Shown here: piece after piece, positions 1 through 19,654 of the stretch
Layout: each line of letters starts with the position of its first letter
Position numbering within the stretch: position 1 is the first letter of the stretch
IMG/VR virus record: IMGVR_UViG_3300036760_000193
Span: 1-27,394 of that record
Strand: one strand, 5' to 3'
Length of the DNA stretch: 27,394 nt
From: a virus
Taxonomy: Duplodnaviria > Heunggongvirae > Uroviricota > Caudoviricetes
The notes under the pieces: model-generated
What the model was told of the DNA's origin: nothing
The model's input: the letters and a program-made list of their open reading frames with translations, nothing else
The model's database searches: none
Position numbers and translations under genes: made by a program

Positions 1-234
1 GTTGAGGCGGTAGTAAAATTTCTGGCGTTGAAGGTAACGCTTACGGCCAGGAGATTGAAAGGACTGGCGTTCCTTAAGCTCATTCATGAGACCTTCCTTC
101 ATGATGATTTTCTTGAATTGCGATAGTGCCTTTTCAAGACACTTATCGCGTTCCTCTTTGCTATCGCCTGTATAGCGTACAAACACTTGTAATGATCCTG
201 ACCGTTGGTTGTTATTTTCGTAAAACTCTGACAC
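1..234 (-). CDS. rpsU: Ribosomal protein bS21 homolog (3' end truncated by window edge)
   Basis: Not in ORF track. GTG at 234 with AAGGAG 7 nt upstream; open to base 1: MSEFYENNNQRSGSLQVFVRYTGDSKEERDKCLEKALSQFKKIIMKEGLMNELKERQSFQSPGRKRYLQRQKFYYRLN. Matches the bS21 pattern VR..E..LEKALRRFKK...EG...ELK.R..Y.KP..KR. Confidence 0.8.
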   Translation of the reverse strand, partial: MSEFYENNNQRSGSLQVFVRYTGDSKEERDKCLEKALSQFKKIIMKEGLMNELKERQSFQSPGRKRYLQRQKFYYRLN

Positions 235-945
235 TTATATTCTCCTTAGTAGTTTCGTAAAGACTCGCTGAATTTCTATTAGTTGACACAAATCTATTGG
301 GCTGGGGACTTCCTGGAAACGAGGCTCTGTTAGGATGATCTTCGCTTCCCCGACTTCTACATCTTTGACGGAAACAATGGTAAAATAGTGGGTTTCTTCT
401 TTGTTAGCGTCAATTTGGAAGTCGATCTGGAATACAAGGGGGCTGCGAATTTGCCACAGTTTGAAGGAATCTTCTTTTCTTATCAGCGCGAAGGATTCTT
501 TGAAGAGGATAGGTAGAATCAGCCCTGTCATATTCCCATAAATGCCATCAGTCTCGTTCTTCCGTTCTGCCTTGAAGGTGCCGCTGTGTTCATACCGCTC
601 TTTGGTTTCCACGTCGAAAACTTTAATGTACCCATACACTGTGCCCAAATCAAAAAGGGTTGTTCCTGTCCAAGTGCTGCCAGGCATGATAGTATAATTG
701 GGGTTGGGGACAGTTAGGATGTTTGGTTGGCAGGTGCATGATCCATACACTCCGCCACAGATGCTACAGTTTAATAGGAATGTATTTCCACTTGAAGCAA
801 CCCCTGTATTTATGGTGGATAAGTATGCGCTCGAATTGCTTGTCAAAGTGACTTTGTTACACCCACAGACGGTTAAATCTTGTCCACAAACACTACATTG
901 AAGGAATGTAGAAAGGGGTCTGTAGGAAGTATAATTACTGTTCAC
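235..945 (-). CDS. Hypothetical protein with two N-terminal CxxC-x5-CxC motifs
   Basis: 236 aa ORF coupled to thyX; CSVCGQDLTVCGC and CSICGGVYGSCTC. Confidence 0.7.
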   Translation of the reverse strand: MNSNYTSYRPLSTFLQCSVCGQDLTVCGCNKVTLTSNSSAYLSTINTGVASSGNTFLLNCSICGGVYGSCTCQPNILTVPNPNYTIMPGSTWTGTTLFDLGTVYGYIKVFDVETKERYEHSGTFKAERKNETDGIYGNMTGLILPILFKESFALIRKEDSFKLWQIRSPLVFQIDFQIDANKEETHYFTIVSVKDVEVGEAKIILTEPRFQEVPSPIDLCQLIEIQRVFTKLLRRI

Positions 946-1615
946 GTTTGAATTCCTTTTTAATGAAAGCTTCTGCCGTCCAGGGCATATAATCTACAAA
1001 GAAGTCTAGGATTGTCAAGGCGTATTGCCGTATTTCCCATTGCGCGTGATCGTCACAGCGCAATTTTAAGAAGTTCATAAGTGCCCGTGCGTTCACTGTC
1101 CAATAGAACTCTGTGTACATGGATTGTGGGAGGATCATTCTGGCCTGTTCTTTTGCCACGCCCTGATCCAAAAGCTTTTTGTAGAAACCATAGATAGCTC
1201 TGTGGAAGTTCTCGAATTTGACGTAAAGCTCATTGGATTGCTGTTCTGGTAGGTTCTCGTACTTGTAGTTTTTCTCTTTCTGGGTACGGAAGTTGGATGG
1301 GATATAAAAATCATCTTGTACGACGGTGTAGCGGCCAGATACTTCATTGTAAGAAGACCAGCGGTGTCTGAACCATTGTCGCGCCACGAAGATTGGGCAT
1401 TTTATATGAAATCTAAAATTCACATGTTCAAAGGGGGTTTCGTGGTTGTTGTTCATCAAGAAACTGATAAGACGTTTGTCTTTCTCGTCCCCTTTTACAG
1501 TGCCACGATAGGAGACTCTGGCCGCTTGCGCGACTGTTAAATCATCTCCATCTACACTGTCTAGATGAACGAATCCTGAGTTTAAGACTTTACGCTGCTT
1601 GAATTGGTGCGTCAT
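935..1615 (-). CDS. thyX: Flavin-dependent thymidylate synthase ThyX
   Basis: ThyX signature RHRWSSYNEVSGRY; also AARVSY, HETPFEH, EQARMILP, NARALMNFLKLR, HAQWEIR. Confidence 0.97.
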   Translation of the reverse strand: MTHQFKQRKVLNSGFVHLDSVDGDDLTVAQAARVSYRGTVKGDEKDKRLISFLMNNNHETPFEHVNFRFHIKCPIFVARQWFRHRWSSYNEVSGRYTVVQDDFYIPSNFRTQKEKNYKYENLPEQQSNELYVKFENFHRAIYGFYKKLLDQGVAKEQARMILPQSMYTEFYWTVNARALMNFLKLRCDDHAQWEIRQYALTILDFFVDYMPWTAEAFIKKEFKREQ

Positions 1616-2792
1616 ATTTTGTCTTCTCGTCTATTACCAATAGCCGATCATACTCATACGGCTTTGGAGATTGAATTTTCTTAAAGTAATCCTCAACGAT
1701 ATCCGCTGGAACTATTCTTTCTCGACCTGCATTTCTTGCTTGAATTATATCTAACGGTAAATCAAAAACAACGATGGACACCCAAGCTCCGTGGTGTCGT
1801 GCCGTTTCTATTAATCTCTTGCGGAGTCTACGCGATACGCTGGTAGCATCCCAAATTGTATTTATTCTATGTTCCATGTTCTTACGCAACTGATGGAAGC
1901 AATTGTCATAAGCTTCTTGGTTACGCGACATGTCCATCATAGTTCCACATAGTTTAAGACGTTCTTCATCCATACTAATGTATGGTACATGTGGATACAA
2001 AGTTTTTACATGGGTAGTTTTGCCTGATCCAGGCGCACCAACCAAAATCATTAGTTCAAATGGAGGTTTTGACATAAGTCTAACACATTCCGCCATCTTT
2101 TTCTCGTCTGTCTCTTTCATGTTTCCGAATAGAACTTTCCATCGCGCCAAATTGTAGGCATGTTGAGGGATTCCTTTGTTGTTAGGAAGTTCATAATACG
2201 TGTCCCAAATGCCCAAGTCGATACAACGTTGCTTGAATGAGTCTAGATACCCTAGCGCGGTCTCTGCCGATTCACCTATGCGTCCAGTGAAGTCCGCTAC
2301 TTCAACGTGATAGACTTGCTCCGTATTAACTTCCAGAGACAGTCGCTTAAATCGGAGATCATCGCTGCCATCCTTAGCCATTCGCTTTGGATGACCATGA
2401 TATTCTACAAGACTCAAAATCCACTCTCTACGAGCGTACCCAAACATTGGAAAATGTTTTCTTAGGAATTCCCTTGCTTTCCAGACTCCAACACCCTCAT
2501 GGCCGTGCGCGGGACACTTACCATCAGCAGAAACAACAGTTGTTTCAGGTTTTCCAAAATCATGTAAAAGACCACCAAGATAAGTGCTTATACCGTCGTC
2601 TTTATTTTCCATTTGTACAGCAATCTCACGGGCTTTTTCCATAACCATGTCTGTATGAATAAGAACATTGCCCTCAGAGTGCCACTTCTTACTCTGTGGT
2701 GTATTTTCCAACTCAACAAACTCAGGGAACTGATCTTTGTACTCGAACAGATTCACTGGTTCTAGATTTAAGATTTTCTCTTGAAAACTCAT
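1590..2792 (-). CDS. HD-domain phosphohydrolase fused to AAA_33/polynucleotide-kinase-like P-loop domain
   Basis: PQSKKWHSEGNVLIHT, LLHDFGKP, HGHEGVG, YHGHP (HD); GAPGSGKTT Walker A, WDATS, RNAGRER.VP (PNK-like). Confidence 0.88.
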   Translation of the reverse strand: MSFQEKILNLEPVNLFEYKDQFPEFVELENTPQSKKWHSEGNVLIHTDMVMEKAREIAVQMENKDDGISTYLGGLLHDFGKPETTVVSADGKCPAHGHEGVGVWKAREFLRKHFPMFGYARREWILSLVEYHGHPKRMAKDGSDDLRFKRLSLEVNTEQVYHVEVADFTGRIGESAETALGYLDSFKQRCIDLGIWDTYYELPNNKGIPQHAYNLARWKVLFGNMKETDEKKMAECVRLMSKPPFELMILVGAPGSGKTTHVKTLYPHVPYISMDEERLKLCGTMMDMSRNQEAYDNCFHQLRKNMEHRINTIWDATSVSRRLRKRLIETARHHGAWVSIVVFDLPLDIIQARNAGRERIVPADIVEDYFKKIQSPKPYEYDRLLVIDEKTKYDAPIQAA

Positions 2793-3986: not shown

Positions 3987-4269
3987 TTTTCTTAGCTTTG
4001 ATGATTTTACAGTTGAAATGCTCTGTCAACACTGCACGGACATCACCTTTGTTCTTCTCTATTTCAAACCCAGCGATGTCACCATCATCTTTCATACTTC
4101 TTAGAAGTTCATGGACTTCATTCTCCGTAAGAACACGCCCAAGCTTTTCTTCTTGGATTCCTTTCTTCACAAAGAAACCCTCTAGCTCGTCGGCGTTAGC
4201 GAATGCCCAAACTCCTGTTATTTCTTTCTTTTCGTTACTCTGTTCCATTAGTTGCCTTCCATGCTTCAT
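3964..4269 (-). CDS. Hypothetical protein
   Basis: 101 aa ORF in operon; true start may be internal. Confidence 0.6.
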   Translation of the reverse strand: MKHGRQLMEQSNEKKEITGVWAFANADELEGFFVKKGIQEEKLGRVLTENEVHELLRSMKDDGDIAGFEIEKNKGDVRAVLTEHFNCKIIKAKKSEDEENV

Positions 4270-5029
4270 ATGCTCTCACTATCTCTTTCACCAACGGGTG
4301 TCTTACAACATCTTCATCAGTGAAAAAGAAAAACTTCAAACCTTTCAATTCACCAATGATATCTTTAAGCTTTAGCAATCCACTCAATTTTTTCTTGGGG
4401 AGGTCGATCTGCGTTATGTCGCCAGTGACCACTACTTTGCTTCCGTTTCCCATGCGTGTCAAGAACATTTCTAACTGTTCCATTGTTGTATTTTGAGCTT
4501 CATCTAGAATTATGAAAGCATCCTCTAATGTGCGACCTCTCATATAAGCCAGTGGAGCTACTTCGATTGTTTTCATTCTCATAAGCTCATCCGCTCTATC
4601 GGGGCCAACCATGTAAAATAACGCATCATAAATAGGTCTGAGATACGGGCTAATCTTCTCTTCCAAATCTCCTGGAAGATATCCAAGTTTCTCACCAGCC
4701 TCAACCGCAGGTCGCGTGATTATAATTCTCGATACGCTTCCATCTTTCAAGGCTTGCAGAGCCATTGCAACAGGTAGAAAAGTTTTACCAGTTCCAGCAG
4801 GCCCTATACAGATCGTCAGATCATTATTTCTAATTGTTTCAATGTACTCTTTCTGACGATCTGACCTAGCTTTAATCCATTCCTCTGTATCAGAAACGTA
4901 AGCTACATCAGGTCTTTCTCTTAAAATTTGCGAATCTGCTTTCTTTGTTACTACTTTATCCGTTTCATATGCAACTACTGACTGCTGTTCTGGGTATCTT
5001 CTATTCTTTCGCCTTTTGTGATGACGCAT
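4235..5029 (-). CDS. phoH: PhoH-like ATPase
   Basis: GPAGTGKT, RIIITRPAVEAGEKLGYLPGD, IEVAPLAYMRGRT, ILDEAQN, GDITQIDL, DVVRHPLV. Confidence 0.97.
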   Translation of the reverse strand: MRHHKRRKNRRYPEQQSVVAYETDKVVTKKADSQILRERPDVAYVSDTEEWIKARSDRQKEYIETIRNNDLTICIGPAGTGKTFLPVAMALQALKDGSVSRIIITRPAVEAGEKLGYLPGDLEEKISPYLRPIYDALFYMVGPDRADELMRMKTIEVAPLAYMRGRTLEDAFIILDEAQNTTMEQLEMFLTRMGNGSKVVVTGDITQIDLPKKKLSGLLKLKDIIGELKGLKFFFFTDEDVVRHPLVKEIVRAYEAWKATNGTE

Positions 5030-7906: not shown

Positions 7907-8307
7907 TCGATTTCCCTCCGTTCCTTTTCCCAGGTTTCAAACTCATCCTTTGTCATGCCATAGGTTTCAGCAAAAGACCAATCTCGTTCAAGCGTATCTA
8001 CTTGATCTTTAAGCATGTCCATCATAATATTCCCAGCATAGGTATTAGCTGTGTGGATGTGAACGATTTTAGGGCGCAACTCTCTCGCCATTGCCAAAAT
8101 GTAAAAAACTACAGGCATATAGGTTTCGTTGCTCGTATGTTGCATCATCCCCATACCACGTAAACTTTCTACCTGGCAACAAATATCATGGTCGATGGAT
8201 ATTTCATCCACTGGAAAAGTGGCAAGTACCCTTATAGCTTTAGTGTTGGTACGTGCCAATTCCCACCCGTCGGGGCACCTGCGTATATCGTCTACAAATA
8301 ATTTCAT
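7903..8307 (-). CDS. Cyclic-phosphate-processing receiver-like domain protein
   Basis: MKLFVDDIRRCPDGW...ISIDHD...HTAN..G..M pattern of the REC-like family linked to RNA repair loci. Confidence 0.75.
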   Translation of the reverse strand: MKLFVDDIRRCPDGWELARTNTKAIRVLATFPVDEISIDHDICCQVESLRGMGMMQHTSNETYMPVVFYILAMARELRPKIVHIHTANTYAGNIMMDMLKDQVDTLERDWSFAETYGMTKDEFETWEKERREIE

Positions 8308-8906
8308 GATCCACTCCTGATTTGTCTTAATGTCTCTACAACTTCTAATTCTGAAATCGGCTTAAATCCCCACTGATCCACTCCTACATTTATCATCCCG
8401 TTTCTACGATCTTTCCATTTCTTTATCTTCCAGGCTGTATGAACGTGACCACACAGAAGCCAAGTGTGTCCATCATCCTTTGGCTGTCCTTGATCCTTCA
8501 TAACTTCATGATGTGCGTCTGGATCATCATGATCTTCAATATAGGGGTCAAACTCAATGTATGGGTATGGATAGTGAGACAACCAAAACTTCTCCCCGTT
8601 AATTTCGATCTGCAAATTATCGTGGGTTTCGTTAAATCCAACGTTCTTCATCACATTCTTATTTTTATCGTGATTCCCCTTAGTCAGAATCTTGTATCCA
8701 TTAAGCTGACTCAGAAGCTCTTTCATAACCTCTTGCTTCTTAAAAGCAAAATCACCAAGATGATAAATAGTATCGTCTGGTTTCACAATAGCATTCCAGT
8801 TGGCGATCATGGTTTTATCCATTTCGTCAGCCGTTTGAAACGGCCTATTACAATATTTAATTATATTCGCATGTCCGAAATGTGTGTCACTTGTGAAGTA
8901 TCTCAC
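8304..8906 (-). CDS. Calcineurin-like metallophosphoesterase
   Basis: SDTHFGH, HLGDFA, KGNHD, LSHYP, CGHVH, INVGVD motifs. Confidence 0.93.
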   Translation of the reverse strand: MRYFTSDTHFGHANIIKYCNRPFQTADEMDKTMIANWNAIVKPDDTIYHLGDFAFKKQEVMKELLSQLNGYKILTKGNHDKNKNVMKNVGFNETHDNLQIEINGEKFWLSHYPYPYIEFDPYIEDHDDPDAHHEVMKDQGQPKDDGHTWLLCGHVHTAWKIKKWKDRRNGMINVGVDQWGFKPISELEVVETLRQIRSGS

Positions 8907-9092: not shown

Positions 9093-9346
9093 ATTACTTC
9101 CTCCACTTTAGCTTTCGGGATTTTTCGTTTCCAAGTTCTTAAGACCATGTTAATCCCTTTCCGCGCCATGTCTACCTGACCATATAACGGGGAATAAATT
9201 ATCTCATCAGCACAGTGAAGTGCCCCGTTTCTTTCTGCATCTGCCTTTAATAGTCGCTGCACCGACTCAAGGACATTTGCTGCCTTTTCTAACTCTCTAA
9301 CGTAGTTTTCAATCTCAATACGTTGCTTATCTTCTTTCTTGTTCAT
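9089..9346 (-). CDS. Hypothetical protein
   Basis: 85 aa, ATGA overlaps. Confidence 0.6.
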   Translation of the reverse strand: MNKKEDKQRIEIENYVRELEKAANVLESVQRLLKADAERNGALHCADEIIYSPLYGQVDMARKGINMVLRTWKRKIPKAKVEEVI

Positions 9347-10464
9347 ATCTTTGTCTCTCCAGACACTCCTTCTCTCACCCCAATTAGATCGTACACTTTT
9401 TTGTCGTTTAATGGCTTACTATCAAGGAGAGAGAACATAAAATTTTTCAAATCAGATGGAACATTAGAATTAACCCACAGCGCAAAATCCTTGCGGGACT
9501 CTTTTGGAGCTTGATTAAATTTCTCATAACACTCATTAACCAAAAGTGTTCGCTGTTTCTGAAAATTCTCTATTTCAGACTCTACTTCGACACGGTATTC
9601 TTCTGGAGCCAAGGTGATAAGTTCCTTGGCTTGCCCAAGTCCCAAAGCTTCTAGAATGGATTTCCTAGACAACCTTGAAATGAACCTGTGGGCTGCAAGA
9701 TAATTGCTGCCTTTAATCTTGACCAAGCGGTCGGCAAATTTCAATACGTAACCCTCTTCCAAAACAGACAAATCTTTCACATTATCCAGTAGAGAATCTA
9801 GAGAACTGAATTGATAAGTTTTTGGAGAGAAGACACCCAATTCCTTAGCCAGCTTTTCGACTTCTGCGCTTCCCAATAATTCATTGGAATAACGATGACG
9901 AACTCCAATAAGATACAACCCTTCTGGGTAGCCTTTCTTTTTGTAATCAATTACGATTTGGAACTTAGAACTGATAAGCTCAAACATCAACGTGTATTTC
10001 GTTACAAATTCTTCGTTTTTCAAAGACTCTGGCATAATGGATGTAGCATATATTCCGTGATCTGAAGACATAGAACCTTTGGTTGTTAATCGGAATTGAT
10101 TTGGAACTCGTTCTTTGTAGAGAGTTAACATAGACCCATCTAGCTTTTCTGTCACTTCAAAAGCTCCAAGTTTTTCCAAAACTTCATATTTCGTTTCAGG
10201 CAGTTCATCTAGATTGAAGAACTTATCAAAGGGATGAGCAATAACTTCGTTGCCGTCAAGAATTAATCCTCGACACATGCGGTTAAAGGGGTTCCATTTT
10301 TTATCGAATTGTACTTCATTAGAATAATGAAGCATTATAGTGGTGGGAGTGAATGGAGAACAAGCGATTTTGACGCCGCTGCGTTCACATTCTGCTAATA
10401 GATTGTCATGCCACTTTAAGTCTGCGGCGGCAAGATAATGTTCTGGTGTATCGTATTGACTCAT
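9343..10464 (-). CDS. T4 Rnl1-like RNA ligase
   Basis: CRGLIL, HPFDKFFNLDE, motif I TEKLDGS, MFEL, EEGYV, LVKIKG. Confidence 0.93.
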   Translation of the reverse strand: MSQYDTPEHYLAAADLKWHDNLLAECERSGVKIACSPFTPTTIMLHYSNEVQFDKKWNPFNRMCRGLILDGNEVIAHPFDKFFNLDELPETKYEVLEKLGAFEVTEKLDGSMLTLYKERVPNQFRLTTKGSMSSDHGIYATSIMPESLKNEEFVTKYTLMFELISSKFQIVIDYKKKGYPEGLYLIGVRHRYSNELLGSAEVEKLAKELGVFSPKTYQFSSLDSLLDNVKDLSVLEEGYVLKFADRLVKIKGSNYLAAHRFISRLSRKSILEALGLGQAKELITLAPEEYRVEVESEIENFQKQRTLLVNECYEKFNQAPKESRKDFALWVNSNVPSDLKNFMFSLLDSKPLNDKKVYDLIGVREGVSGETKI

Positions 10465-10935: not shown

Positions 10936-11010
10936 TGGTAGCGGGTGACAGAATCGGACTGTCATTTATGGCTTATGAAACCACCGTGTTAGCCATTACA
11001 CCAACCCGCC
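10936..11010 (-). tRNA. tRNA-Met(CAT), probably elongator
   Basis: GGCGGGT/ACCCGCT acceptor, loop TTCATAA, T-loop TCCGATT, encoded CCA. Confidence 0.88.
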
Positions 11011-11111
11011 AAAATTTAGGGACTTTCCATCCCTCTGCTAGGATCACGCACGACTAGCTGGTGCTCCAGGATTTATGAAGTTTGTGTGTAGCTCTCAGCC
11101 TGGCTCTTAAA

Positions 11112-11187
11112 TGGTTGCGGGAGATGGACTCGAACCACCCGTCTCCGGCTTATGAGGCCGACGAGATAACCCCTTCTCTATCCCGCG
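11112..11187 (-). tRNA. tRNA-fMet(CAT), initiator type
   Basis: C1.A72 mismatch, CGCGGG 5' end, A11-U24, loop CTCATAA, CCA. Confidence 0.9.
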
Positions 11188-11192
11188 AAAAC

Positions 11193-11555
11193 TTATCGAA
11201 CGTAGGAATTAGTGTGCTTCAACCAAGCGTGAAAATCAAAAGAAAACTCAGGGAAATCCAAACGTGCCTGATTAAACAATGCTTCTGATAGTCTCAATTG
11301 TTGTGTAGTATCCACAGTCGCGTCTAATCTGTAATAGCCGAATTTCTCTTTGCTGTAAACATCTGTGACACCATGATCTTTCAAGATTGTTTCGATTTTT
11401 TCCAGAATCGTGTATCCTGCTTTATGAATCTCATGTCCACAGTCTTCACAAGTATACCCTTGCTTACCTTTCCATAAATAAATCCAAAATCTATCCTGCG
11501 TTATCGTCTTGCATACTAGACACTTGTCACGTTTTACAGTCGTTTGCTTGCTCAT
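11193..11555 (-). CDS. Hypothetical protein with CxxC...CxxC
   Basis: 120 aa; AAAGGAG RBS. Confidence 0.7.
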   Translation of the reverse strand: MSKQTTVKRDKCLVCKTITQDRFWIYLWKGKQGYTCEDCGHEIHKAGYTILEKIETILKDHGVTDVYSKEKFGYYRLDATVDTTQQLRLSEALFNQARLDFPEFSFDFHAWLKHTNSYVR

Positions 11556-11665
11556 GGAAGACTCCTTTCCCTTTTTCTTTTTGTTAATTTCTTTTTGTTA
11601 ATAGGACTCTATTAACGATTTTACGAAATTTTTCGAGTTATAAAAAGTTTATTTTTGTTACAAAT

Positions 11666-11751
11666 TGGAGCACAGGAAGGGAATCGAACCCCCGACGGTC
11701 TTACGACCAATGCGTTTGCAGCGCACCCCCTTACCATTCGGGCACCTGTGC
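11666..11751 (-). tRNA. tRNA-Cys(GCA) with long variable arm
   Basis: GCACAGG/CCTGTGC, loop CTGCAAA, U73, CCA, V-arm GGTC-GTAA-GACC. Confidence 0.88.
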
Positions 11752-11799
11752 GTCTAAGACTCCAGGCTTTTTTTAAGCTTGCGTAAAGCTTTATCAAGC

Positions 11800-12318
11800 T
11801 TATAGTGGAGGAATCTCTTTATGCTCTTCTTTCTTAGAAGGTTCTCGTTTATTATCAGCTTGATTACTACTTTCTTTACTGGCATCGTGGCTCTCCTGTT
11901 CTGTTTCTTCAAATTCCATTTCGGTCTCGACCTCAGTTACAATATCGTCTCTCAAGTCCCGAAGTTGCTTTTTAATTCGATTAGCTTTCTCTAAGTGCTG
12001 CATACGCTTTTCGCGTTCTGTCTTTTTCTTGTTGTTCTTATACGCCAACAAAGCCAAACCTTGTCCCAGGACACAGCCCTGAATATAAAAAAAGTATGGA
12101 ATGATGGCATCCCAAGAAATATGCCCCTCTTCTACACCCTTCCAAAAGAGGGAGAAAGTAATTAAGTACACCACGCCGTCCAGCATCCGATTCATTTCAG
12201 CGAAGATCATGGTTTGACCCACCTTCAATCTGACTGAAACTAAGTTTTCGTATTCCTGGAGTGCGTACTCAACTACACCGATTCCAAATAAGACTAATGA
12301 CCACCAATACCAAACCAC
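11800..12318 (-). CDS. Hypothetical membrane protein with acidic C-terminal tail
   Basis: GTG start with GAGGTG RBS; about 3 hydrophobic segments. Confidence 0.7.
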   Translation of the reverse strand: MVWYWWSLVLFGIGVVEYALQEYENLVSVRLKVGQTMIFAEMNRMLDGVVYLITFSLFWKGVEEGHISWDAIIPYFFYIQGCVLGQGLALLAYKNNKKKTEREKRMQHLEKANRIKKQLRDLRDDIVTEVETEMEFEETEQESHDASKESSNQADNKREPSKKEEHKEIPPL

Positions 12319-12334
12319 AGGGCACCTCTAAAAA

Positions 12335-12631
12335 TCACATTGCCCCCCGACAATACGGCTCTTTGTACTCTTTTATTTTACCATCTTCATACTGATAACT
12401 TCTGAACCAATGCTCATAAGAAATCTGAGCTTCTTTGACCCCATACTTAAAAGGAATGTGTATACTCTGATCGTTAGGTAGAATAATGTCCATGTATGCC
12501 TGATCTGCGTTCACAAACACCTGCTCCGCCACGTATCGGGCTTGCATTACACATTGGTCATCATAAATATGAACATCAAGAAGATTCGACGACAAGACGA
12601 GGACTGTCAACAGCTTACTTAACGTTTGCAT
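12335..12631 (-). CDS. Hypothetical protein (possible signal peptide)
   Basis: 98 aa; hydrophobic N-terminus. Confidence 0.6.
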   Translation of the reverse strand: MQTLSKLLTVLVLSSNLLDVHIYDDQCVMQARYVAEQVFVNADQAYMDIILPNDQSIHIPFKYGVKEAQISYEHWFRSYQYEDGKIKEYKEPYCRGAM

Positions 12632-12956
12632 AAGCGATCACCATTGAGAACCACATGATTTTGCACAAAGCGTGTAGCGATTGATCGACAACCATTCCGT
12701 ACCACCCATGAGTTTTTCCGTAATCAATAACCCAATGAGAGATACCTTCAAGGATACCAATAAAAACTGATCCCGTCGCCAGGGCTACCAAACTAGCGTG
12801 AACAAACGCATGTGCAGTAAGCCAGTAGTACCACGGCACAATCTTCTGCAAAGGGCTTTCACTGGTGTAATACTTCTCTCGCCCCATTGTGTCCGTTTGA
12901 AACACATAATCGCCAAAGGCATGTGCGGCGAATAACCAAAACAATAGGGCGATCAT
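12615..12956 (-). CDS. DUF3307-like membrane protein
   Basis: AHAFGDYVFQT, LTAHAFVH, SHWVIDYGK, VDQSLH; start moved to 12956 (ATGA overlap). Confidence 0.8.
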   Translation of the reverse strand: MIALLFWLFAAHAFGDYVFQTDTMGREKYYTSESPLQKIVPWYYWLTAHAFVHASLVALATGSVFIGILEGISHWVIDYGKTHGWYGMVVDQSLHALCKIMWFSMVIAYANVK

Positions 12957-13141
12957 GATGGCATCCGTCCTGAATAAATTGTATGATCCACTTCCATTCC
13001 GCATCCCGCACAGCGCGTGATAGGAATTCTCAAGCCGTCCTCATGCTCCAACTGCACCACACCCTCTGCGCTTCCGCAAAGACATGGGTCAATCGTGATG
13101 GTTGCCTTATTCGTTTTCCGCTTGTCCGTTTTCAGCTTCAT
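12953..13141 (-). CDS. Small Cys-containing hypothetical protein
   Basis: 62 aa; CLC...CAGC. Confidence 0.5.
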   Translation of the reverse strand: MKLKTDKRKTNKATITIDPCLCGSAEGVVQLEHEDGLRIPITRCAGCGMEVDHTIYSGRMPS

Positions 13142-13532
13142 GGCCTTCCTCCAATCGTGTCTTTGCTGTTGGATCGTAAAAAGCGTCTTCTAAAAATTTG
13201 AATAAGTCTGCTTGTTCTTTTTCTAATGTTTTGGAAACCTTCTGCCCCGATAGCTTCAAATCCTGCAAAATCCTTAACCCACGCACGACCACTGAAATTG
13301 GTATAAACAAACCGTTAATGCGATAATGAATCACTCCGTCTTCCATCATTGTCAGAGAACCCATTCTGGAACTCACGGGACTCAATGAGTCCGCCAAGTC
13401 GCGCTCCAATGTCTCAATCCGATCCAGAAGAAATTTAACATCATCCAGCGTATTTTCTAATGTCGTATGACTTAAAGATTTCCGCTTTATCGCGTCTCGC
13501 CAAAGGTGCTTTACTTCTTGTGCTTTATCCAT
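13107..13532 (-). CDS. Hypothetical protein
   Basis: 141 aa ORF in operon. Confidence 0.65.
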   Translation of the reverse strand: MDKAQEVKHLWRDAIKRKSLSHTTLENTLDDVKFLLDRIETLERDLADSLSPVSSRMGSLTMMEDGVIHYRINGLFIPISVVVRGLRILQDLKLSGQKVSKTLEKEQADLFKFLEDAFYDPTAKTRLEEGHEAENGQAENE

Positions 13533-13644
13533 AAATTCTCACAATGAAATCCAAGACCCAGGTGTGGCACATCACAAAAATCTTAACGTACCAGTACCCT
13601 GCGAAAGCTACAAACAAAGTTAGAAATGGGTCTTCTTGGATCAT
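13525..13644 (-). CDS. Small membrane peptide (39 aa), probably leaderless
   Basis: MIQEDPFLTLFVAFAGYWYVKIFVMCHTWVLDFIVRIYG; ATG 5 nt after a TATAAT box; below ORF-track cutoff. Confidence 0.5.
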   Translation of the reverse strand: MIQEDPFLTLFVAFAGYWYVKIFVMCHTWVLDFIVRIYG

Positions 13645-13649
13645 ACCTA

Positions 13650-13678
13650 ATTATACACCTAAAACGGTGAAAAGTCAA
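13650..13678 (-). promoter_or_regulatory. sigma70-type promoter
   Basis: TTGACT-17 nt-TATAAT with TG extension. Confidence 0.85.
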
Positions 13679-13699
13679 GGGGAATTTAATGCTTGATTA

Positions 13700-13864
13700 T
13701 CAATTGTTTTCGTTGTCTTTTTGGTCGGCAACGGGGGCTTTTTGTTTAGGACAGGCGGGACAATAATAAAACTTCATGCCAGAACCAGGGATTACAATTA
13801 ATCCTTCTTCGTTCCCACACTTCGGGCAAACATGAATAGTTTTGAGAATTTTATGCTCCGACAT
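13700..13864 (-). CDS. Small zinc-ribbon protein
   Basis: MSEHKILKT..CPKC...CPAC; GGAGG RBS before 13864. Confidence 0.6.
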   Translation of the reverse strand: MSEHKILKTIHVCPKCGNEEGLIVIPGSGMKFYYCPACPKQKAPVADQKDNENN

Positions 13865-13912
13865 TACCCCTCCTATAATGCACGTAATTGACATATACGT
13901 CAATTGTCTGCA

Positions 13913-14077
13913 TTATGCGTCTGAAATATCTATATCAAAATTGGAATCTGGAATAAAGACGATCTCTTTATCTTCCTTTACTCCGCGCTTTTGGATTCCT
14001 CTTTTTTGCAGCTTTCCGGTCTTCTCTAATCTCTTCTCTTCCTCTTTCTTCTTTTGCCCATCTTTTCGCTGTGCCAT
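13913..14077 (-). CDS. Small charged protein (54 aa) overlapping the upstream ORF
   Basis: AAGGAG 7 nt before ATG; MAQRKDGQKKKEEEKRLEKTGKLQKRGIQKRGVKEDKEIVFIPDSNFDIDISDA. Confidence 0.5.
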   Translation of the reverse strand: MAQRKDGQKKKEEEKRLEKTGKLQKRGIQKRGVKEDKEIVFIPDSNFDIDISDA

Positions 14078-14279
14078 GTCGTTTTCTCCTTAGAACAAGT
14101 TCATATTCTGGAACGTCTCTATTTGATGTGTGAAAGTCATCTGGAAAGTATGTGTCTCTAGTATTGGAAAGACGTTTATCTGTGTCACTATAAAACATCA
14201 CGCCCTCATGAAGACCATACCTATAAACATACGGATGGCCGAAGCCAATTATGTACTCTTTTTTGAATTTCTTTGCCAT
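13968..14279 (-). CDS. Hypothetical protein, probably leaderless
   Basis: 103 aa; ATG 5 nt after the -10 box of a consensus promoter. Confidence 0.6.
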   Translation of the reverse strand: MAKKFKKEYIIGFGHPYVYRYGLHEGVMFYSDTDKRLSNTRDTYFPDDFHTSNRDVPEYELVLRRKRHGTAKRWAKEERGREEIREDRKAAKKRNPKARSKGR

Positions 14280-14284
14280 ATTCT

Positions 14285-14313
14285 ATTATACGCACTCCTT
14301 GTTAGTTTGTCAA
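14285..14313 (-). promoter_or_regulatory. sigma70-type promoter
   Basis: Perfect TTGACA-17 nt-TATAAT. Confidence 0.9.
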
Positions 14314-14319
14314 TGGAAA

Positions 14320-14395
14320 TGGTAGCCCCAACGGGAGTTGAACCCGTATCACAACCTTGAGAGAGTTGTATCCTAGTCCGTTGGAAGATGAGGCT
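14320..14395 (-). tRNA. tRNA-Glu(CTC)
   Basis: AGCCTCA/TGGGGCT, loop CTCTCAA, TTCAACT, CCA. Confidence 0.88.
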
Positions 14396-14870
14396 AAAAC
14401 GGGTCGCAAATAGTCCAGGTGACGCCTGGGTGTTTCAGAAGCTCAGCTTTGATGAGCATTTCGGTTTGGCTCCACGGGACATTAAACAATCCCGAATTAA
14501 ATTTGTTAGAATAAATCTTATGCTCTTTCAAAATCTCTGATTTCTCTAAAAACTCAAAAAAGGAAACCAAGGCTTTTTGGGTGCTGACCAAAATCTTATC
14601 TTGGGAGTCAACATATTTCCCGTATCCAATGCTAGTAAATAGGCACCCCATTACCTTATCTGCCCCGTTCGTTGGATAGATCACAGCGGTTCCTACCAAT
14701 TTCTTTCCAAGCCTTTTACAATTTTCACTATACAGCCTTACCGCACTTGGAAAACGTTGATGGAATTCCTTTGCAATACCAGACCCCATTACACCACAAC
14801 AGTTTGTGGCATGAACAAGAATTGCATTGCCTTCAATATCAAATAAACTTTTCTTTTCGTAAGTAATCAT
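14394..14870 (-). CDS. Macrodomain protein (Poa1p/TARG1-like ADP-ribose processing)
   Basis: Start MITYEKKSLF at 14870; VHATNCCGVMGSGIAKEF, CLFTS.GYG, NSGLFNVPW. Confidence 0.88.
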   Translation of the reverse strand: MITYEKKSLFDIEGNAILVHATNCCGVMGSGIAKEFHQRFPSAVRLYSENCKRLGKKLVGTAVIYPTNGADKVMGCLFTSIGYGKYVDSQDKILVSTQKALVSFFEFLEKSEILKEHKIYSNKFNSGLFNVPWSQTEMLIKAELLKHPGVTWTICDPF

Positions 14871-14874
14871 AAAA

Positions 14875-14948
14875 TGGCTGGGGTAGAAAGAATTGAACTC
14901 TCTCCTACGGTTTTGGAGACCGTCGTGCTGCCGTAACACTTTACCCCA
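14875..14948 (-). tRNA. tRNA-Trp(CCA)
   Basis: TGGGGTA/TACCCCA, loop CTCCAAA, G73, CCA. Confidence 0.92.
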
Positions 14949-14952
14949 AAAT

Positions 14953-15024
14953 TGGTGGGCTTTGTAGATTCGCACTACATTTCTCCCGCTAATTGGGAGC
15001 GACCTAGAGTTAGTCGATCAGCCC
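14953..15024 (-). ncRNA. tRNA-like cloverleaf with non-canonical arms
   Basis: GGGCT/AGCCC, CGAC/GTCG, CTCCC/GGGAG, TGTAG/CTACA stems; ends ACCA. Confidence 0.55.
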
Positions 15025-15080
15025 GAAAAGTAACCCACCGATTTGAGCATTGTAAAGAGGCTTGGCAGGTATTGTTAAAT

Positions 15081-15155
15081 TGGTGCCCTCAGAGAGTTTC
15101 GATCTCTCTTCTCATGGTTGAAAGCCATGAATCCTAGCCAGTAGACGATGAGGGC
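15081..15155 (-). tRNA. tRNA-Glu(TTC)
   Basis: GCCCTCA/TGAGGGC, loop CTTTCAA, T-loop ATCGAAA, CCA. Confidence 0.9.
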
Positions 15156-15229
15156 TGGAGCGGGTAGGGAGAATCGGACTCCCATCTAAACATTGGCAAT
15201 GTCTCGTACTACCACTGTACGATACCCGC
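15156..15229 (-). tRNA. tRNA-Gly(GCC)
   Basis: GCGGGTA/TACCCGC, loop TTGCCAA, U73, CCA. Confidence 0.92.
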
Positions 15230-15301
15230 AGCGGGTAGCGAGAGTTGAACTCGCTCCTGGTGGTTGGAAACCACTCATGCAGCCGTTAACACCTTACCCG
15301 C
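15230..15301 (-). tRNA. tRNA-Gly(TCC), no encoded CCA
   Basis: GCGGGTA/TACCCGC, loop TTTCCAA, U73 abutting next tRNA. Confidence 0.9.
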
Positions 15302-15306
15302 AAAAT

Positions 15307-15400
15307 TGGCGGAGAGCAGAGGACTTGAACCCCAACCGGAGGATCACTCCGATCTATCTGTTTTCAAAACAGTAGCCAGACCATTCCAGCATTACTCTCC
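15307..15400 (-). tRNA. tRNA-Ser(TGA), 8/4 allo-tRNA-like fold
   Basis: 8-bp acceptor GGAGAGTA/TGCTCTCC, 4-bp T-stem, 6-bp D-stem with tetraloop, long V-arm, G73, CCA. Confidence 0.85.
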
Positions 15401-15401
15401 A

Positions 15402-15472
15402 AGCCCATACCAGAAGTCGAATCTGGATTTTCCGTTTACGAAACGGGTGTTCTACCATTGAACTATACGGGC
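15402..15472 (-). tRNA. tRNA-Thr(CGT), no CCA
   Basis: GCCCGTA/TATGGGC, loop TTCGTAA. Confidence 0.9.
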
Positions 15473-15474
15473 AC

Positions 15475-15545
15475 AGCCGCAAACAAGAATCGGACTTGTA
15501 TTTCATCATTACCAATGACGTGTACTCCCATTGTACTATTGCGGC
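15475..15545 (-). tRNA. tRNA-Thr(GGT), no CCA
   Basis: GCCGCAA/TTGCGGC, loop TTGGTAA, T-loop TCCGATT. Confidence 0.9.
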
Positions 15546-15547
15546 GA

Positions 15548-15619
15548 AGCCGACAGAGGGATTTGAACCCCCAACCTGCTGTTTACAAAACAGCTGCTCT
15601 GCCATTGAGCTATGTCGGC
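15548..15619 (-). tRNA. tRNA-Thr(TGT), no CCA
   Basis: GCCGACA/TGTCGGC, loop TTTGTAA. Confidence 0.92.
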
Positions 15620-15620
15620 A

Positions 15621-15698
15621 TGGTGGGTACGGAAGGACTCGAACCTTCAAGAACTCGCTTTTGAAACGAGTATGTCTGCCAATTGCAATCACGTACCC
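15621..15698 (-). tRNA. tRNA-Leu(CAA), short variable loop
   Basis: GGGTACG/CGTACCC, loop TTCAAAA, Leu-type D-loop, A73, CCA. Confidence 0.88.
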
Positions 15699-15773
15699 TG
15701 GTGACAAGAAGAGGACTCGAACCTCCAACCGGTCGGATGTAAACCGACTGCTCCGCCATTGAGCTACCTTGCC
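15699..15773 (-). tRNA. tRNA-Val(TAC)
   Basis: GGCAAGG/TCTTGTC, loop TTTACAT, CCA. Confidence 0.92.
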
Positions 15774-15775
15774 AT

Positions 15776-15885
15776 TATACGCTTTACCGTATAAACTACT
15801 TTTATACGCTTTCGCGTATATTCCCGTTCGGGAATAAATTATCAAAAAAGCCACTTATAATTTCAAATATTCCCGTTCGGGAATA
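15776..15885. repeat. Four 18-bp palindromes (2x TATACG-N6-CGTATA, 2x TATTCCCGTTCGGGAATA)
   Basis: At 15776-15793, 15803-15820, 15819-15836 and 15868-15885. Confidence 0.9.
15838..15866 (-). promoter_or_regulatory. Internal promoter bracketed by palindromes
   Basis: TTGAAA-17 nt-GATAAT lying between the two TATTCCCG palindromes. Confidence 0.6.
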
Positions 15886-15890
15886 AAATC

Positions 15891-15964
15891 TGGTGGGTTC
15901 AGAGAGACTTGAACTCTCATTAATCGGGTAAGAACCGATTATTCTGCCTTTGAATTATGAACCC
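15891..15964 (-). tRNA. tRNA-Lys(CTT)
   Basis: GGGTTCA/TGAACCC, loop TTCTTAC, CCA. Confidence 0.92.
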
Positions 15965-16040
15965 TGGCACCCTCGGTGAGATTCGAACTCACATCACGCT
16001 CCTTAGAAGGGAGGTATCTGTCCAGTTGAACTACAAGGGT
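15965..16040 (-). tRNA. tRNA-Arg(TCT)
   Basis: ACCCTTG/CGAGGGT, loop CTTCTAA, CCA. Confidence 0.92.
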
Positions 16041-16041
16041 A

Positions 16042-16113
16042 TGCCCTGACTGAGACTCGAACTCAGACATCCCGCTTAGGATGCGGGTGCTCTTCCAATT
16101 TAGCTATCAGGGC
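16042..16113 (-). tRNA. tRNA-Arg(CCT), no CCA
   Basis: GCCCTGA/TCAGGGC, loop ATCCTAA. Confidence 0.9.
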
Positions 16114-16260
16114 TTCTTCTTTCACTGCGTAAAGTCTTCGTCCAGAACATCCTATGCTCCAAACTTTTCTGCATACAATGCAACTCATCCACCGATGGTA
16201 TGGTTTAGAGTCGAACACGTTAAACTTGTTCTCGCAATCACACAATATTTTATCACTCAT
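16063..16260 (-). CDS. Small Cys-rich protein whose 3' end runs into tRNA-Arg(CCT)
   Basis: CDC...CIVC; fills the gap between two Arg tRNA pairs. Confidence 0.5.
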   Translation of the reverse strand: MSDKILCDCENKFNVFDSKPYHRWMSCIVCRKVWSIGCSGRRLYAVKEEALIAKLEEHPHPKRDV

Positions 16261-16264
16261 AAAA

Positions 16265-16339
16265 TGGTGCCCTCGGTTGGAATCGAACCAACATCATCTC
16301 TTTCGTAGAGAGACATCCTATCCGTTGAACGACGAAGGC
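16265..16339 (-). tRNA. tRNA-Arg(ACG)
   Basis: GCCTTCG/CGAGGGC, loop CTACGAA, CCA. Confidence 0.9.
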
Positions 16340-16341
16340 TA

Positions 16342-16414
16342 AGCCCCAAGCAAGACTCGAACTTGCAACCGTCTGGTTCGAAGCCAGACACTCTTCCAAT
16401 TGAGCTATTGGGGC
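16342..16414 (-). tRNA. tRNA-Arg(TCG), no CCA
   Basis: GCCCCAA/TTGGGGC, loop CTTCGAA. Confidence 0.9.
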
Positions 16415-16489
16415 GGCTCCGCACGTTGGACTCGAACCAACATAGTTCCGGTTAACAGCCGGACTCCTTACCAATTAGGATAATGCGGA
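16415..16489 (-). tRNA. tRNA-Asn(GTT), ends in CC
   Basis: TCCGCAT/GTGCGGA, loop CTGTTAA, G73-CC then the next tRNA. Confidence 0.92.
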
Positions 16490-16490
16490 A

Positions 16491-16580
16491 TGGTGCGTTG
16501 AGTAGGATTCGAACCTACAATGCCCCTTAACGGAGTCCTGGTTTACAGCCAGGTGGTTTCAACCATTTACCTATCAACGC
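16491..16580 (-). tRNA. tRNA-Tyr(GTA)
   Basis: GCGTTGA/TCAACGC, loop CTGTAAA, long V-arm, A73, CCA. Confidence 0.92.
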
Positions 16581-16581
16581 T

Positions 16582-16658
16582 TGGTGCGAACGGAGAGATT
16601 CGAACTCTCACTAAGTCGCTCTTAAGGCGACCGACTCTGCCAGTTGGTCTACGTTCGC
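16582..16658 (-). tRNA. tRNA-Leu(TAA), short variable loop
   Basis: GCGAACG/CGTTCGC, loop CTTAAGA, V=TTAGT, CCA. Confidence 0.9.
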
Positions 16659-16733
16659 TGGTGCCAACGGTCGGAATTGAACCGACTGCCTCCTCGTCTT
16701 CAGCGAGGCACTCTACCGATGAGTTACGTTGGC
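16659..16733 (-). tRNA. tRNA-Phe(GAA)
   Basis: GCCAACG/CGTTGGC, loop CTGAAGA, CCA. Confidence 0.93.
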
Positions 16734-16823
16734 GGCGGAGACCACTGATCCCGACTCAGAACCACATTTTCTGTGATCGCTCGGTTTAGCAAACCGGCCT
16801 GGCTCCCCGCCAGTTTAGTCTCC
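16734..16823 (-). tRNA. tRNA-Ser(GCT), 8/4 allo-tRNA-like fold, ends in CC
   Basis: GGAGACTA/TGGTCTCC 8 bp; T-arm CTGA-GTCGGGA-TCAG; D-stem CTGGC/GCCAG; loop TTGCTAA; long V-arm; G73. Confidence 0.8.
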
Positions 16824-17009
16824 AACTTTTACTGCTACAATATCTTTGTTAAGCTCACAATCTTTTTCAGAACATCCCATACCACGGGAACTATAACAGA
16901 TCACATGAAAGCGGCTTCCATTAGCATAGATGTGCTCTACTGTTCCGTCTTTCTTTTGAAATACGGGCAATGCTTCCCACTCATTAAAAATGCTGATGTA
17001 TCTTGCCAT
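16815..17009 (-). CDS. Small hypothetical protein
   Basis: 64 aa; AAGGA RBS; stop lies inside tRNA-Ser(GCT). Confidence 0.6.
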   Translation of the reverse strand: MARYISIFNEWEALPVFQKKDGTVEHIYANGSRFHVICYSSRGMGCSEKDCELNKDIVAVKVGD

Positions 17010-17010
17010 T

Positions 17011-17616
17011 TTACTTTTCCTTTTTCAATTCAGTATCCCAGTAGCATGAATCAATAACTTTCTGCCATGCCGTTCTGATTGGCATATGTGGAGGGAACTC
17101 TATAAATGTCATCGCTCCTTTCCACGCAGGTCTACTTGGTTTCGCCAAAAGGTGCATATTAGCTTCTTCTGGTGTCCTGTCTTTCTTTCTTGAGTTACAC
17201 TCGATGCAAGCTGTAACGATATTTGTCCAATCTGTTTTTCCACCGCGAGACCTTGGAATTACATGATCCAAATTCAAATCTGCACTGTGAAACTTGTTAC
17301 CACAGTAAGCGCATTTGTGACCATAGTGCTGATAGATGTTGCGCCTTGAAAACTTCACTTCTCTCTTAGGTAGCCTGTCAAATTTATTTAAGCGAATGAT
17401 ATCTGGAACAGCAATCTTAACCCGTGGTGAATTCACAAACCCATTTGGACTGTCTTTCATGGCTGCTGAAAGCTCTGCCCAACTCTCAAAATTATAGTTG
17501 ACGTATTGGTCATCCAAAGCTTCTGCTAGACCTTGGTACATGAGAGACACAGCTTTCTTCCAATCCACAATTTGGATTGCATAGTAATTTCTGTTTAGCA
17601 CCAAGACATCATTCAT
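17011..17616 (-). CDS. HNH endonuclease (McrA-like/HNH_5 family)
   Basis: VLVLNRNY, FSRRNIY...CAYCG, LNLDHVIPRSRGG, WTNIVTACIECNSRKKDRTPEEA; GAGGTG RBS. Confidence 0.93.
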   Translation of the reverse strand: MNDVLVLNRNYYAIQIVDWKKAVSLMYQGLAEALDDQYVNYNFESWAELSAAMKDSPNGFVNSPRVKIAVPDIIRLNKFDRLPKREVKFSRRNIYQHYGHKCAYCGNKFHSADLNLDHVIPRSRGGKTDWTNIVTACIECNSRKKDRTPEEANMHLLAKPSRPAWKGAMTFIEFPPHMPIRTAWQKVIDSCYWDTELKKEK

Positions 17617-17625
17617 ATCTCACCT

Positions 17626-17690
17626 CATTATCACGTTTATTATCACATTATCACGTTTATTATCACATTATCACGTTTATTATCACATTA
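17626..17690. repeat. 20-bp tandem repeat, 3.25 perfect copies
   Basis: (CATTATCACGTTTATTATCA)x3 + CATTA immediately upstream of the HNH RBS. Confidence 0.95.
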
Positions 17691-17735
17691 CCCAATTCAT
17701 TACCTAGTTCCACGAATTGTTACCTAATTCAAATT

Positions 17736-17810
17736 TGGGGCGATGGACGGGGATTGAACCCGCTTCTCTGGCTTCACAAACCAGCACTTTACCATTAAGC
17801 TACCAACGCC
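17736..17810 (-). tRNA. tRNA-His(GTG)
   Basis: Encoded G-1 and C73, loop TTGTGAA, CCA. Confidence 0.93.
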
Positions 17811-17852
17811 ATTCCATCCGCACCCGATGGGCACGAATGGAGTGCTACAAAT

Positions 17853-17916
17853 ATTAATGATCGTTTATAGTCTACCATACTTTCGTTCTTTTGTCAAGAT
17901 ATAAATGATCGTTTAT
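17853..17916. promoter_or_regulatory. Pair of near-palindromic operators AT(T/A)AATGATCGTTTAT
   Basis: 16-mers at 17853-17868 and 17901-17916 flanking a promoter. Confidence 0.7.
17869..17897 (-). promoter_or_regulatory. sigma70-type promoter for the His-onward tRNA block
   Basis: TTGACA-17 nt-TAGACT. Confidence 0.8.
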
Positions 17917-17922
17917 GAAAAT

Positions 17923-17998
17923 TGGTGGGTTCGGTGGGCAACGATCCCACAACCTTCCGGTTAAAAGCCGGCTGCTCCGCCAATTGAGCTACAAACCC
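17923..17998 (-). tRNA. tRNA-Lys(TTT), aberrant T-loop
   Basis: GGGTTTG/CGAACCC, loop CTTTTAA, T-loop ATCGTTG, CCA. Confidence 0.9.
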
Positions 17999-18049
17999 TA
18001 CGAGGAAGTTTTATTTAACGGTGTTTCGTCCCCTCACTCCACCCCAAAC

Positions 18050-18166
18050 TTATTTCCAGTCAATCTTACCAGTTTCAAGAACCTTGGACACTTCATTTCT
18101 GTTCAGATACCCAATCCAGAAACCCGCCCAATATCCCGCAACCAGTCCAACAAGTAACAACAACAT
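18050..18166 (-). CDS. Small single-pass membrane peptide (38 aa)
   Basis: AAAGGAG RBS; MLLLLVGLVAGYWAGFWIGYLNRNEVSKVLETGKIDWK. Confidence 0.65.
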   Translation of the reverse strand: MLLLLVGLVAGYWAGFWIGYLNRNEVSKVLETGKIDWK

Positions 18167-18187
18167 GTTATTCTCCTTTACTACAAA

Positions 18188-18263
18188 TGGTCTGAGTGAC
18201 AGGAATTGAACCTGCTGCCTCCCAGTTCCAAGCCGGGCCGTCTACCGATGACATTACACTCAG
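18188..18263 (-). tRNA. tRNA-Pro(TGG)
   Basis: CTGAGTG/CACTCAG, loop CTTGGAA, CCA. Confidence 0.92.
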
Positions 18264-18266
18264 GTA

Positions 18267-18337
18267 CTCCCTCGTAAGGACTCGAACCTCAATGACCAGA
18301 TTCAGAGTCTGGCATCTTGCCATTAGATGACAAGGGA
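18267..18337 (-). tRNA. tRNA-Gln(CTG), no CCA
   Basis: TCCCTTG/CGAGGGA (U1-A72), loop CTCTGAA, G73. Confidence 0.92.
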
Positions 18338-18739: not shown

Positions 18740-18743
18740 AAAA

Positions 18744-18819
18744 TGGTTCGAGAGATACGATTCGGACGTATATCTTCCTCGTTCAAAGCGAGGCGAGTTA
18801 CCAATTACTCTACTCTCGA
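18744..18819 (-). tRNA. tRNA-Gln(TTG)
   Basis: TCGAGAG/CTCTCGA, loop CTTTGAA, T-loop TCCGAAT, A73, CCA. Confidence 0.88.
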
Positions 18820-18871
18820 AATACACGCCCAAATTGCGCTCCGTGTGTGACCGTTCTGCGTGGCGTGTTTG

Positions 18872-19183: not shown

Positions 19184-19187
19184 AAAT

Positions 19188-19280: not shown

Positions 19281-19283
19281 AAA

Positions 19284-19651: not shown

Positions 19652-19654
19652 TTG

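Follow-up and report, generated by a model that had tools for sequence, protein, structure and literature searches.

The stretch of DNA analyzed here (the window, 27,394 bp; bases 1–27394 of a 193,203-bp viral source record) begins inside a gene whose product is almost certainly a genuine phage homolog of ribosomal protein bS21. The gene lies on the minus strand, where its open reading frame (ORF) is opened by a GTG codon at window positions 234–232 and continues without a stop down to window base 1, leaving the ORF 3′-open at the window edge with 78 of its codons inside the window. The sole sequencing run that contained the stretch was a sediment DNA metagenome, from which the record probably comes. 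The neighboring features are given below with the evidence for each; coordinates are those of the window unless the record is named, and handles beginning with L denote loci in this record or in related contigs.

1–234, continuing at record 193076–192903, minus strand: 5′ part (codons 1–78 of 135) of the bS21 gene (ORF list, joined translation, PF01165 match at E 6e-8, homologs)
241–248, minus strand: Shine–Dalgarno (SD) sequence of bS21, TAAGGAGA, in which AAGGAG ends 7 nt before the GTG (sequence)
235–945, minus strand: gene x, 236 aa, no known family (orthologs precede bS21 in L004, L007, L008 and L024, with 36–71% identity)
935–1615, minus strand: ThyX thymidylate synthase (PF02511, E 2e-62; position kept in L003, L008, L010 and L024)
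1590–2792, minus strand: HD phosphohydrolase and polynucleotide-kinase-like (AAA_33) protein (Pfam HD and AAA_33, PHROG polynucleotide kinase; syntenic in relatives)
4235–5029, minus strand: PhoH-like ATPase, the upstream end of the conserved block (PF02562, E 1e-90; syntenic in L003, L008, L010 and L024)
10936–19820, minus strand: array of 33 tRNA genes (ARAGORN)
Record 192476–192988 (L002 900–1412), minus strand: peptide deformylase, with its ATG at L002 1412

The original prediction had described an SD-led GTG ORF at positions 1–234 that the ORF track had missed. The analysis confirmed this ORF, on the minus strand and with the SD spacing listed above; it is absent from the ORF track because the cut that made the linear record falls within the gene. 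The first 127 bases of the window are identical to record positions 193077–193203, a terminal repeat of the kind that marks an assembly as circular or circularly permuted. Because the bS21 gene spans this repeat, gene calling on the linear record necessarily splits the gene or loses it. When the frame is read over the junction it resumes at record position 193076 and ends at a stop codon at 192903 (L002 1500–1327), yielding a joined gene of 135 codons and a product of 135 aa with a pI of 10.1, whose 55-residue C-terminal extension is coded beyond the window edge at the other end of the record. The join is not an artifact of the record ends, because contiguous homologs of 122–155 aa align end to end with both halves of the joined protein.

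Identity as bS21 is carried by profile matches, predicted fold and selection. The 78 window-encoded residues, within which the core, the pre-strand extension and the insertion quoted in the original prediction are all found, scored 32.7 bits against Pfam PF01165 (Ribosomal_S21; cut-off 27, E 6e-8) and matched PHROG 21469, ‘ribosomal protein S21’, at E 9e-7; the PF01165 score in the genome search was 33.4 bits. PF01165 was also matched by 52 of 52 aligned relatives, with a best E of 4e-19. When a profile of the close family was compared with PDB sequences, all 37 matches at E ≤0.01 were bS21, bS21m or bS21c, the best being the Borreliella protein (E 6e-8).

The AlphaFold2 (AF2) model of the phage protein (mean pLDDT 81) places helices at residues 26–47, 49–57 and 62–77. 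In an exhaustive structural scan of 48,161 representative chains, run independently of Foldseek, bS21 proteins occupied ranks 1–14 (Z 3.7–5.0), among them those of E. coli (4ybb_AU, Z 4.9, rmsd 2.3 Å over 56/56 residues), Borreliella burgdorferi (8fmw_U, Z 4.8) and Flavobacterium johnsoniae (7jil_z, Z 4.2), and the chains below rank 14 were unrelated helical ones with Z ≤3.5. The top five Foldseek matches in the PDB were all mitochondrial bS21m, with TM of ~0.6 and E values of only 0.5–1.3. These modest absolute scores (Z ~5 in the scan) reflect the shortness of the protein, ~60 residues, and its helical make-up; the ranking is specific for bS21 although the scores themselves are small. Both the family profile and the predicted structure thus bore out the claim of bS21 homology.

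Residue R56 of the phage protein aligns with the Arg that precedes the E-F/Y-Y-E-K-P block of PDB bS21 sequences. Its conservation across the family is at least 90%, and it is the equivalent of R35 of E. coli bS21, a residue that contacts uS11 (preprint 10.64898/2026.08.26.747336). Comparison with the L003 ortholog gave pN 0.055 and pS 0.86 for the core, which is under strong purifying selection. For the C-terminal tail dN/dS was 0.38, and the overlapping deformylase frame may account for some of the constraint seen in the last 28 codons; the N-terminal extension, at 0.71, is only loosely constrained.

The phage protein shares its family and predicted fold with canonical bacterial bS21 (E. coli 4YBB chain AU, Borreliella 8FMW chain U) and with mitochondrial bS21m (human 3J9M/6RW4 chain Q), and the uS11-contacting arginine is common to it and canonical bS21. 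It differs from them in length: canonical bS21 proteins have 52–71 residues and mitochondrial ones 86–87, whereas the phage protein has 135, adding to the canonical form ~15 residues at the N-terminus, 7–8 in the strand-to-helix loop and ~55 at the C-terminus. The RLY ending of E. coli-type bS21 is absent. The protein is basic yet about twice the usual size, small size being typical of the bS21 family without defining it, and it is less basic than E. coli bS21, whose pI exceeds 12 (preprint 10.64898/2026.08.26.747336).

Model residues 15–78 superpose on residues 2–57 of E. coli bS21 (64 residues on 56), which leaves the extension of ~15 residues ahead of the first strand and the insertion between strand and helix 1. 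Both of these additions had been pointed out in the original prediction; they are real and conserved in relatives, and the quoted Y-T-G-D-S-K-E-E segment partly lengthens helix 1. In a full-length model of P0001, an 82%-identical homolog, the C-terminal helix extends from residue 62 to ~102, with confident pLDDT to ~90, and the helix of the phage protein is accordingly predicted to be ~20 residues longer than the canonical one. Beyond the helix, the P0001 model continues into a basic tail rich in Asn and Pro, modeled with low confidence, whose last residues are a conserved T-P-V-H-R. The stretch following the SPG (=KPS) motif has a strongly basic composition (pI 10.4). In alignment, Y75 falls on Tyr54 of F. 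johnsoniae bS21, and most relatives carry Y, H or W at this position, with the caveat that the alignment was made against position 54 of chains of 63–64 aa (9i5v_9 and 7jil_z) and, given an F-Y-Y run, could be off by one residue.

The extensions are evidently translated, because codon 1 is the sole start-capable codon ahead of the core in both L007 and L010. An internal start at the GTG of codon 17 was considered and rejected: it has no SD, and neither L007 nor L010 has an internal start-capable codon before the core.

The start of bS21 is built into the end of gene x. The last codons of gene x, CTA AGG AGA ATA TAA (Leu-Arg-Arg-Ile-stop), form the bS21 SD, and the TAA (237–235) abuts the bS21 GTG in the same frame. 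The string AGGAG(A/G)ATATAA-GTG has the same layout in four loci, those of this phage, L003, L007 and L008, and the ...LLRRI C-terminus of gene x is conserved in orthologs. This arrangement suggests that translation of bS21 is coupled to that of gene x by termination–reinitiation. Of eight bS21 loci, five start with GTG, one with TTG and the two most distant with ATG, so that the start is non-ATG in 6/8 compared with 4/72 of the other called genes on the relatives’ contigs, where ATG opens 68/72. No promoter- or terminator-like sites above chance were found flanking bS21. Gene x itself has a Cys-rich N-terminal half, with two CxxC...CxC groups, and a conserved C-terminal half; it had no match among Pfam, PHROG and the ESM Atlas, and its ortholog stands ahead of bS21 in all cases.

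At its other end, bS21 runs into the peptide deformylase gene. The two genes overlap by 86 nt in this phage, deformylase opening at an ATG (L002 1412) within the bS21 tail in the +1 frame; this is one extreme among the loci, and a gap of 27 nt is the other.

The gene order PhoH–DUF4406–x–HD/kinase–ThyX–x–bS21–peptide deformylase recurs in L003, L004, L007, L008, L009, L010, L023 and L024, eight independent contigs from several studies, over which bS21 identity falls from 82% to about 38%. In the bS21 tree the rows from these contigs fall within one 25-row clade (SH-aLRT 90), and the long-tailed forms make up a nine-row subclade (SH-aLRT 92); the tree (57 rows, 85 columns, three starred branches) is poorly resolved, lacks named host and phage bS21 sequences, and serves for grouping only. 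We conclude that the gene is phage-borne and old, and that it has passed down vertically within a lineage of large, uncultured myoviruses.

Close relatives are few. A word-indexed search of 5.8 billion proteins returned seven, and an exhaustive search of 1.84 billion cluster representatives only 50 at E ≤1e-3, with long-tailed forms of 122–155 aa recurring in nine cluster representatives. A tblastn search with a 135-aa homolog found no match in 50,697 GenBank phage records. Canonical bacterial bS21, used as the query against GenBank phages, matched no more than 19 records; most of these were prophage edges or fragments lacking annotation, and they gave no useful phage outgroup. A pattern scan of IMG/VR found no relative, and one of 185,579 GTDB species genomes found only an ordinary 57-aa bacterial bS21 beside RNase PH. 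A search for longer proteins, such as a bS21–deformylase fusion, found only bS21 proteins of 139–140 aa. The nearest neighbors in the ESM Atlas were three viral clusters annotated ‘Ribosomal protein S21 domain-containing’ (109–121 aa, 51–56 members each, 91–100% Viruses), the best of which was also the top structural neighbor and covered query residues 11–96 at TM 0.50/0.55. These clusters are leads only (feature score 0.86–0.88) and are shorter than the 122–155-aa forms of this lineage, but the existence of long viral S21 clusters indicates that extended viral bS21 is a recurring type.

The record as a whole is a myovirus genome, encoding a portal protein, large terminase, tail sheath, family A DNA polymerase (PolA), DnaB-type helicase and ribonucleotide reductase (RNR). 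Essentially all of its ~258 ORFs, bS21 included, lie on one strand; terminase and portal are at record positions 164.9–168.4 kb, ~25 kb from bS21. The best GenBank match of the terminase was Bacillus phage G, at only 28% identity, which points to a deep-branching myovirus lineage, and PolA was ~30% identical to SPO1-like phages. Searches with PhoH, TerL and PolA for a host returned only distant matches, too weak to name one.

Signals in the DNA give some indication of the type of host. SD use by phage genes, on which the original prediction had relied, is pronounced: an SD match of at least 4 nt precedes 60% of first start codons, compared with 9% of control positions. The promoter-like pattern TTGACA-N16–18-TAnnnT is 8-fold enriched in the intergenic DNA of the record, and the Bacteroidota motif TAnnTTTG is depleted. 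Together, the strong SDs and the TTGACA/TAnnnT enrichment point to an SD-using bacterium with sigma70-type promoters, and judged from these sequence signals a Bacteroidota host is unlikely. The intergenic DNA is also enriched for GTATAAT and TAAGGAG.

Other genes of the phage concern translation as well. ARAGORN called 34 tRNA genes genome-wide, 33 of them within the window; the original prediction of a complete tRNA set is nearly right, but no tRNA was called for Asp or Ser. One 94-nt tRNA gene was called as Phe(AAA), and another, at 19654–19744, has a four-base ‘anticodon’. A methionine aminopeptidase gene (PF00557, E 7e-47) lies at record 103857–104537 on the minus strand (L026). With the deformylase, the phage thus has both N-terminal processing enzymes. 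Beside the tRNA array, all on the minus strand, are the HD/polynucleotide-kinase-like protein (1590–2792), a phosphoesterase (8304–8906) and an Rnl1-type RNA ligase (9343–10464). By its domains the HD/AAA_33 protein looks like an RNA-repair enzyme, and kinase, phosphoesterase and ligase together look like a tRNA-repair set.

In bacteria, bS21 is a late-assembling, readily exchanging protein that lies beside uS11 and the anti-SD tail of 16S rRNA. The phage protein probably acts as a ribosome-bound bS21 substitute; identity as bS21 and ribosome-bound action, taken together, are likewise a probable combination. Phage-encoded bS21 is established (PMC6375957, PMC7162821, PMC9723584), and the bS21 of a pelagiphage enters E. 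coli 70S ribosomes (PMC6375957). From the conserved core and this precedent we infer that, after infection, the phage protein would take the place of bS21 on the 30S platform of host ribosomes. Ribosome binding would fall to the conserved core, and the N-terminal peptide, the longer loop, the ~20-residue helix extension and the basic, disordered tail could add contacts to rRNA or mRNA near the SD/anti-SD helix. Such contacts could keep initiation on, or bias it towards, the strongly SD-led phage messages; that the protein does confer selectivity for phage mRNAs is, in our judgment, doubtful. The retuning of host initiation between SD-led and leaderless mRNAs that the original prediction put forward is a conjecture. 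Deformylase, methionine aminopeptidase, the 34 tRNAs and the putative RNA-repair enzymes would support a high rate of phage protein synthesis, with bS21 itself probably translated by coupling to gene x from its conserved GTG/TTG start with a strong SD.

Incorporation into the ribosome need not mean stimulation, because the one published assay of a phage bS21 found ribosomes with the pelagiphage protein to have ~5% of wild-type activity in vitro (PMC6375957). The same result favors the best surviving alternative, which we consider unlikely: that a bS21-derived protein has changed its job and, while still docking on RNA or the 30S platform, works as a decoy or inhibitor that blocks host initiation or locks ribosomes, or else binds some other RNA. 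The doubled length, added segments and lower pI relative to canonical bS21 would fit such a protein, as would the extraribosomal RNA partners documented for bS21 (OLE RNP, PMC12054373), and the weak GTG/TTG start, kept across most loci, suggests that it is important for dosage to be low or controlled. However, the whole core, including the uS11-contacting arginine, is under the strong purifying selection expected for normal docking, a general block of SD-dependent initiation would hurt a phage whose own genes are strongly SD-led, and the nearby deformylase, methionine aminopeptidase and tRNAs point to a boost of translation rather than a stop.

A more far-reaching form of the ribosome-bound substitute reading is that the extended protein is a lineage-specific, ribosome-reprogramming subunit. 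Helix and tail would then reach the SD/anti-SD helix, the mRNA exit side or the 30S head, phage messages with an extended SD (UAAGGAG; UAAGGAGG) would be preferred, and the coupled GTG and the deformylase overlap would tie the dosages of both proteins to the initiation state. We regard this full scheme as distinctly improbable; in a variant of it, the host might lack bS21 and the phage might supply the protein.

Much the same evidence on the host bears on the mechanism proposed for freshwater bS21 phages, in which a Bacteroidota-type bS21 sequesters the anti-SD (PMC9723584). The aromatic Y75, aligned with Tyr54 of F. johnsoniae bS21 (PMC7797042, PMC9723584), is the feature that speaks for it here. 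The part of the phage protein that follows SPG is strongly basic, however, whereas the Bacteroidota C-terminal domain is distinctly less so (PMC7797042); the share of phage genes with an SD (60%, versus 9% at control positions), the 8-fold intergenic enrichment of TTGACA-N17-TAnnnT and the depletion of TAnnTTTG run against it; and the bS21 gene is not a reverse-strand gene inside a head-gene block. With a host that appears to use SDs and sigma70-type promoters, anti-SD sequestration is disfavored, and on these sequence features it is largely refuted and to our minds very improbable. The notion that there is no functional phage gene here but a chance ORF, host contamination or a record-end joining artifact draws on the ORF being split by the record ends and uncalled, and on the handful of close homologs in 5.8 billion proteins, and it has a negligible chance of being right: synteny and selection refute it, given that eight independent contigs carry full-length, contiguous orthologs within the shared phage gene order and that the core is under strong purifying selection, and it also conflicts with a record that is a 193-kb myovirus genome (portal, terminase, sheath, polymerase) and a C-terminal half, from the other record end, that aligns with the tails of homologs.

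The phage protein can be set beside the viral systems already described. The viral bS21 of Mizuno et al. (2019) (PMC6375957; pelagiphage HTVC008M) likewise comes from a large (>130 kb) myovirus genome and is under purifying selection, and the action proposed for it, exchange into the host 30S subunit, is the same. In contrast to that protein, the one described here is 135 aa long, with extra N-terminal residues, an inserted loop segment and an elongated C-terminal helix followed by a tail, its gene is fixed beside and overlapping peptide deformylase, and its habitat is sediment. Chen et al. (2022) (PMC9723584) described freshwater Bacteroidetes phages in which bS21 belongs to the conserved core genes of a large-phage clade, as it does here; those phages and this lineage also share an aromatic residue at the Tyr54-equivalent position and C-termini that diverge between clades and are conserved within them. 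The clades of Chen et al. carry bS21 in reverse orientation within a block of terminase, major capsid and portal genes, whereas here it is co-directional within the PhoH–ThyX–deformylase block, and the strong SDs and sigma70-type promoters of the present phage set it further apart from theirs.

Relative to these systems, the double-length bS21 architecture is new, as are the lineage-wide pairing of bS21 with deformylase, the conserved non-AUG, coupled start of bS21 and the occurrence of a phage bS21 in an SD-using, non-Bacteroidota setting. Phage bS21 is, to our knowledge, the commonest viral ribosomal protein, and we know of nobody who has shown its benefit to the phage. The lineage offers a natural variant in which a conserved docking core is set apart from three add-on segments. 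The separable core and tail, the link to deformylase and the non-AUG start make it well suited to asking whether a viral bS21 replaces the host protein or alters the choice of mRNAs. If the gene is merely another copy of bS21, its description still corrects the annotation of a gene split by record ends and of a deformylase start miscalled in relatives.

That start is miscalled in L003 and L008. The conserved N-terminal block of deformylase begins ahead of the bS21 stop. In both loci (L003 6476–6835, L008 6536–6898) the called start is set after that stop, and the resulting products, of 119–120 aa, begin downstream of the conserved N-terminal L-x-I-R-L-Y-T-D block.
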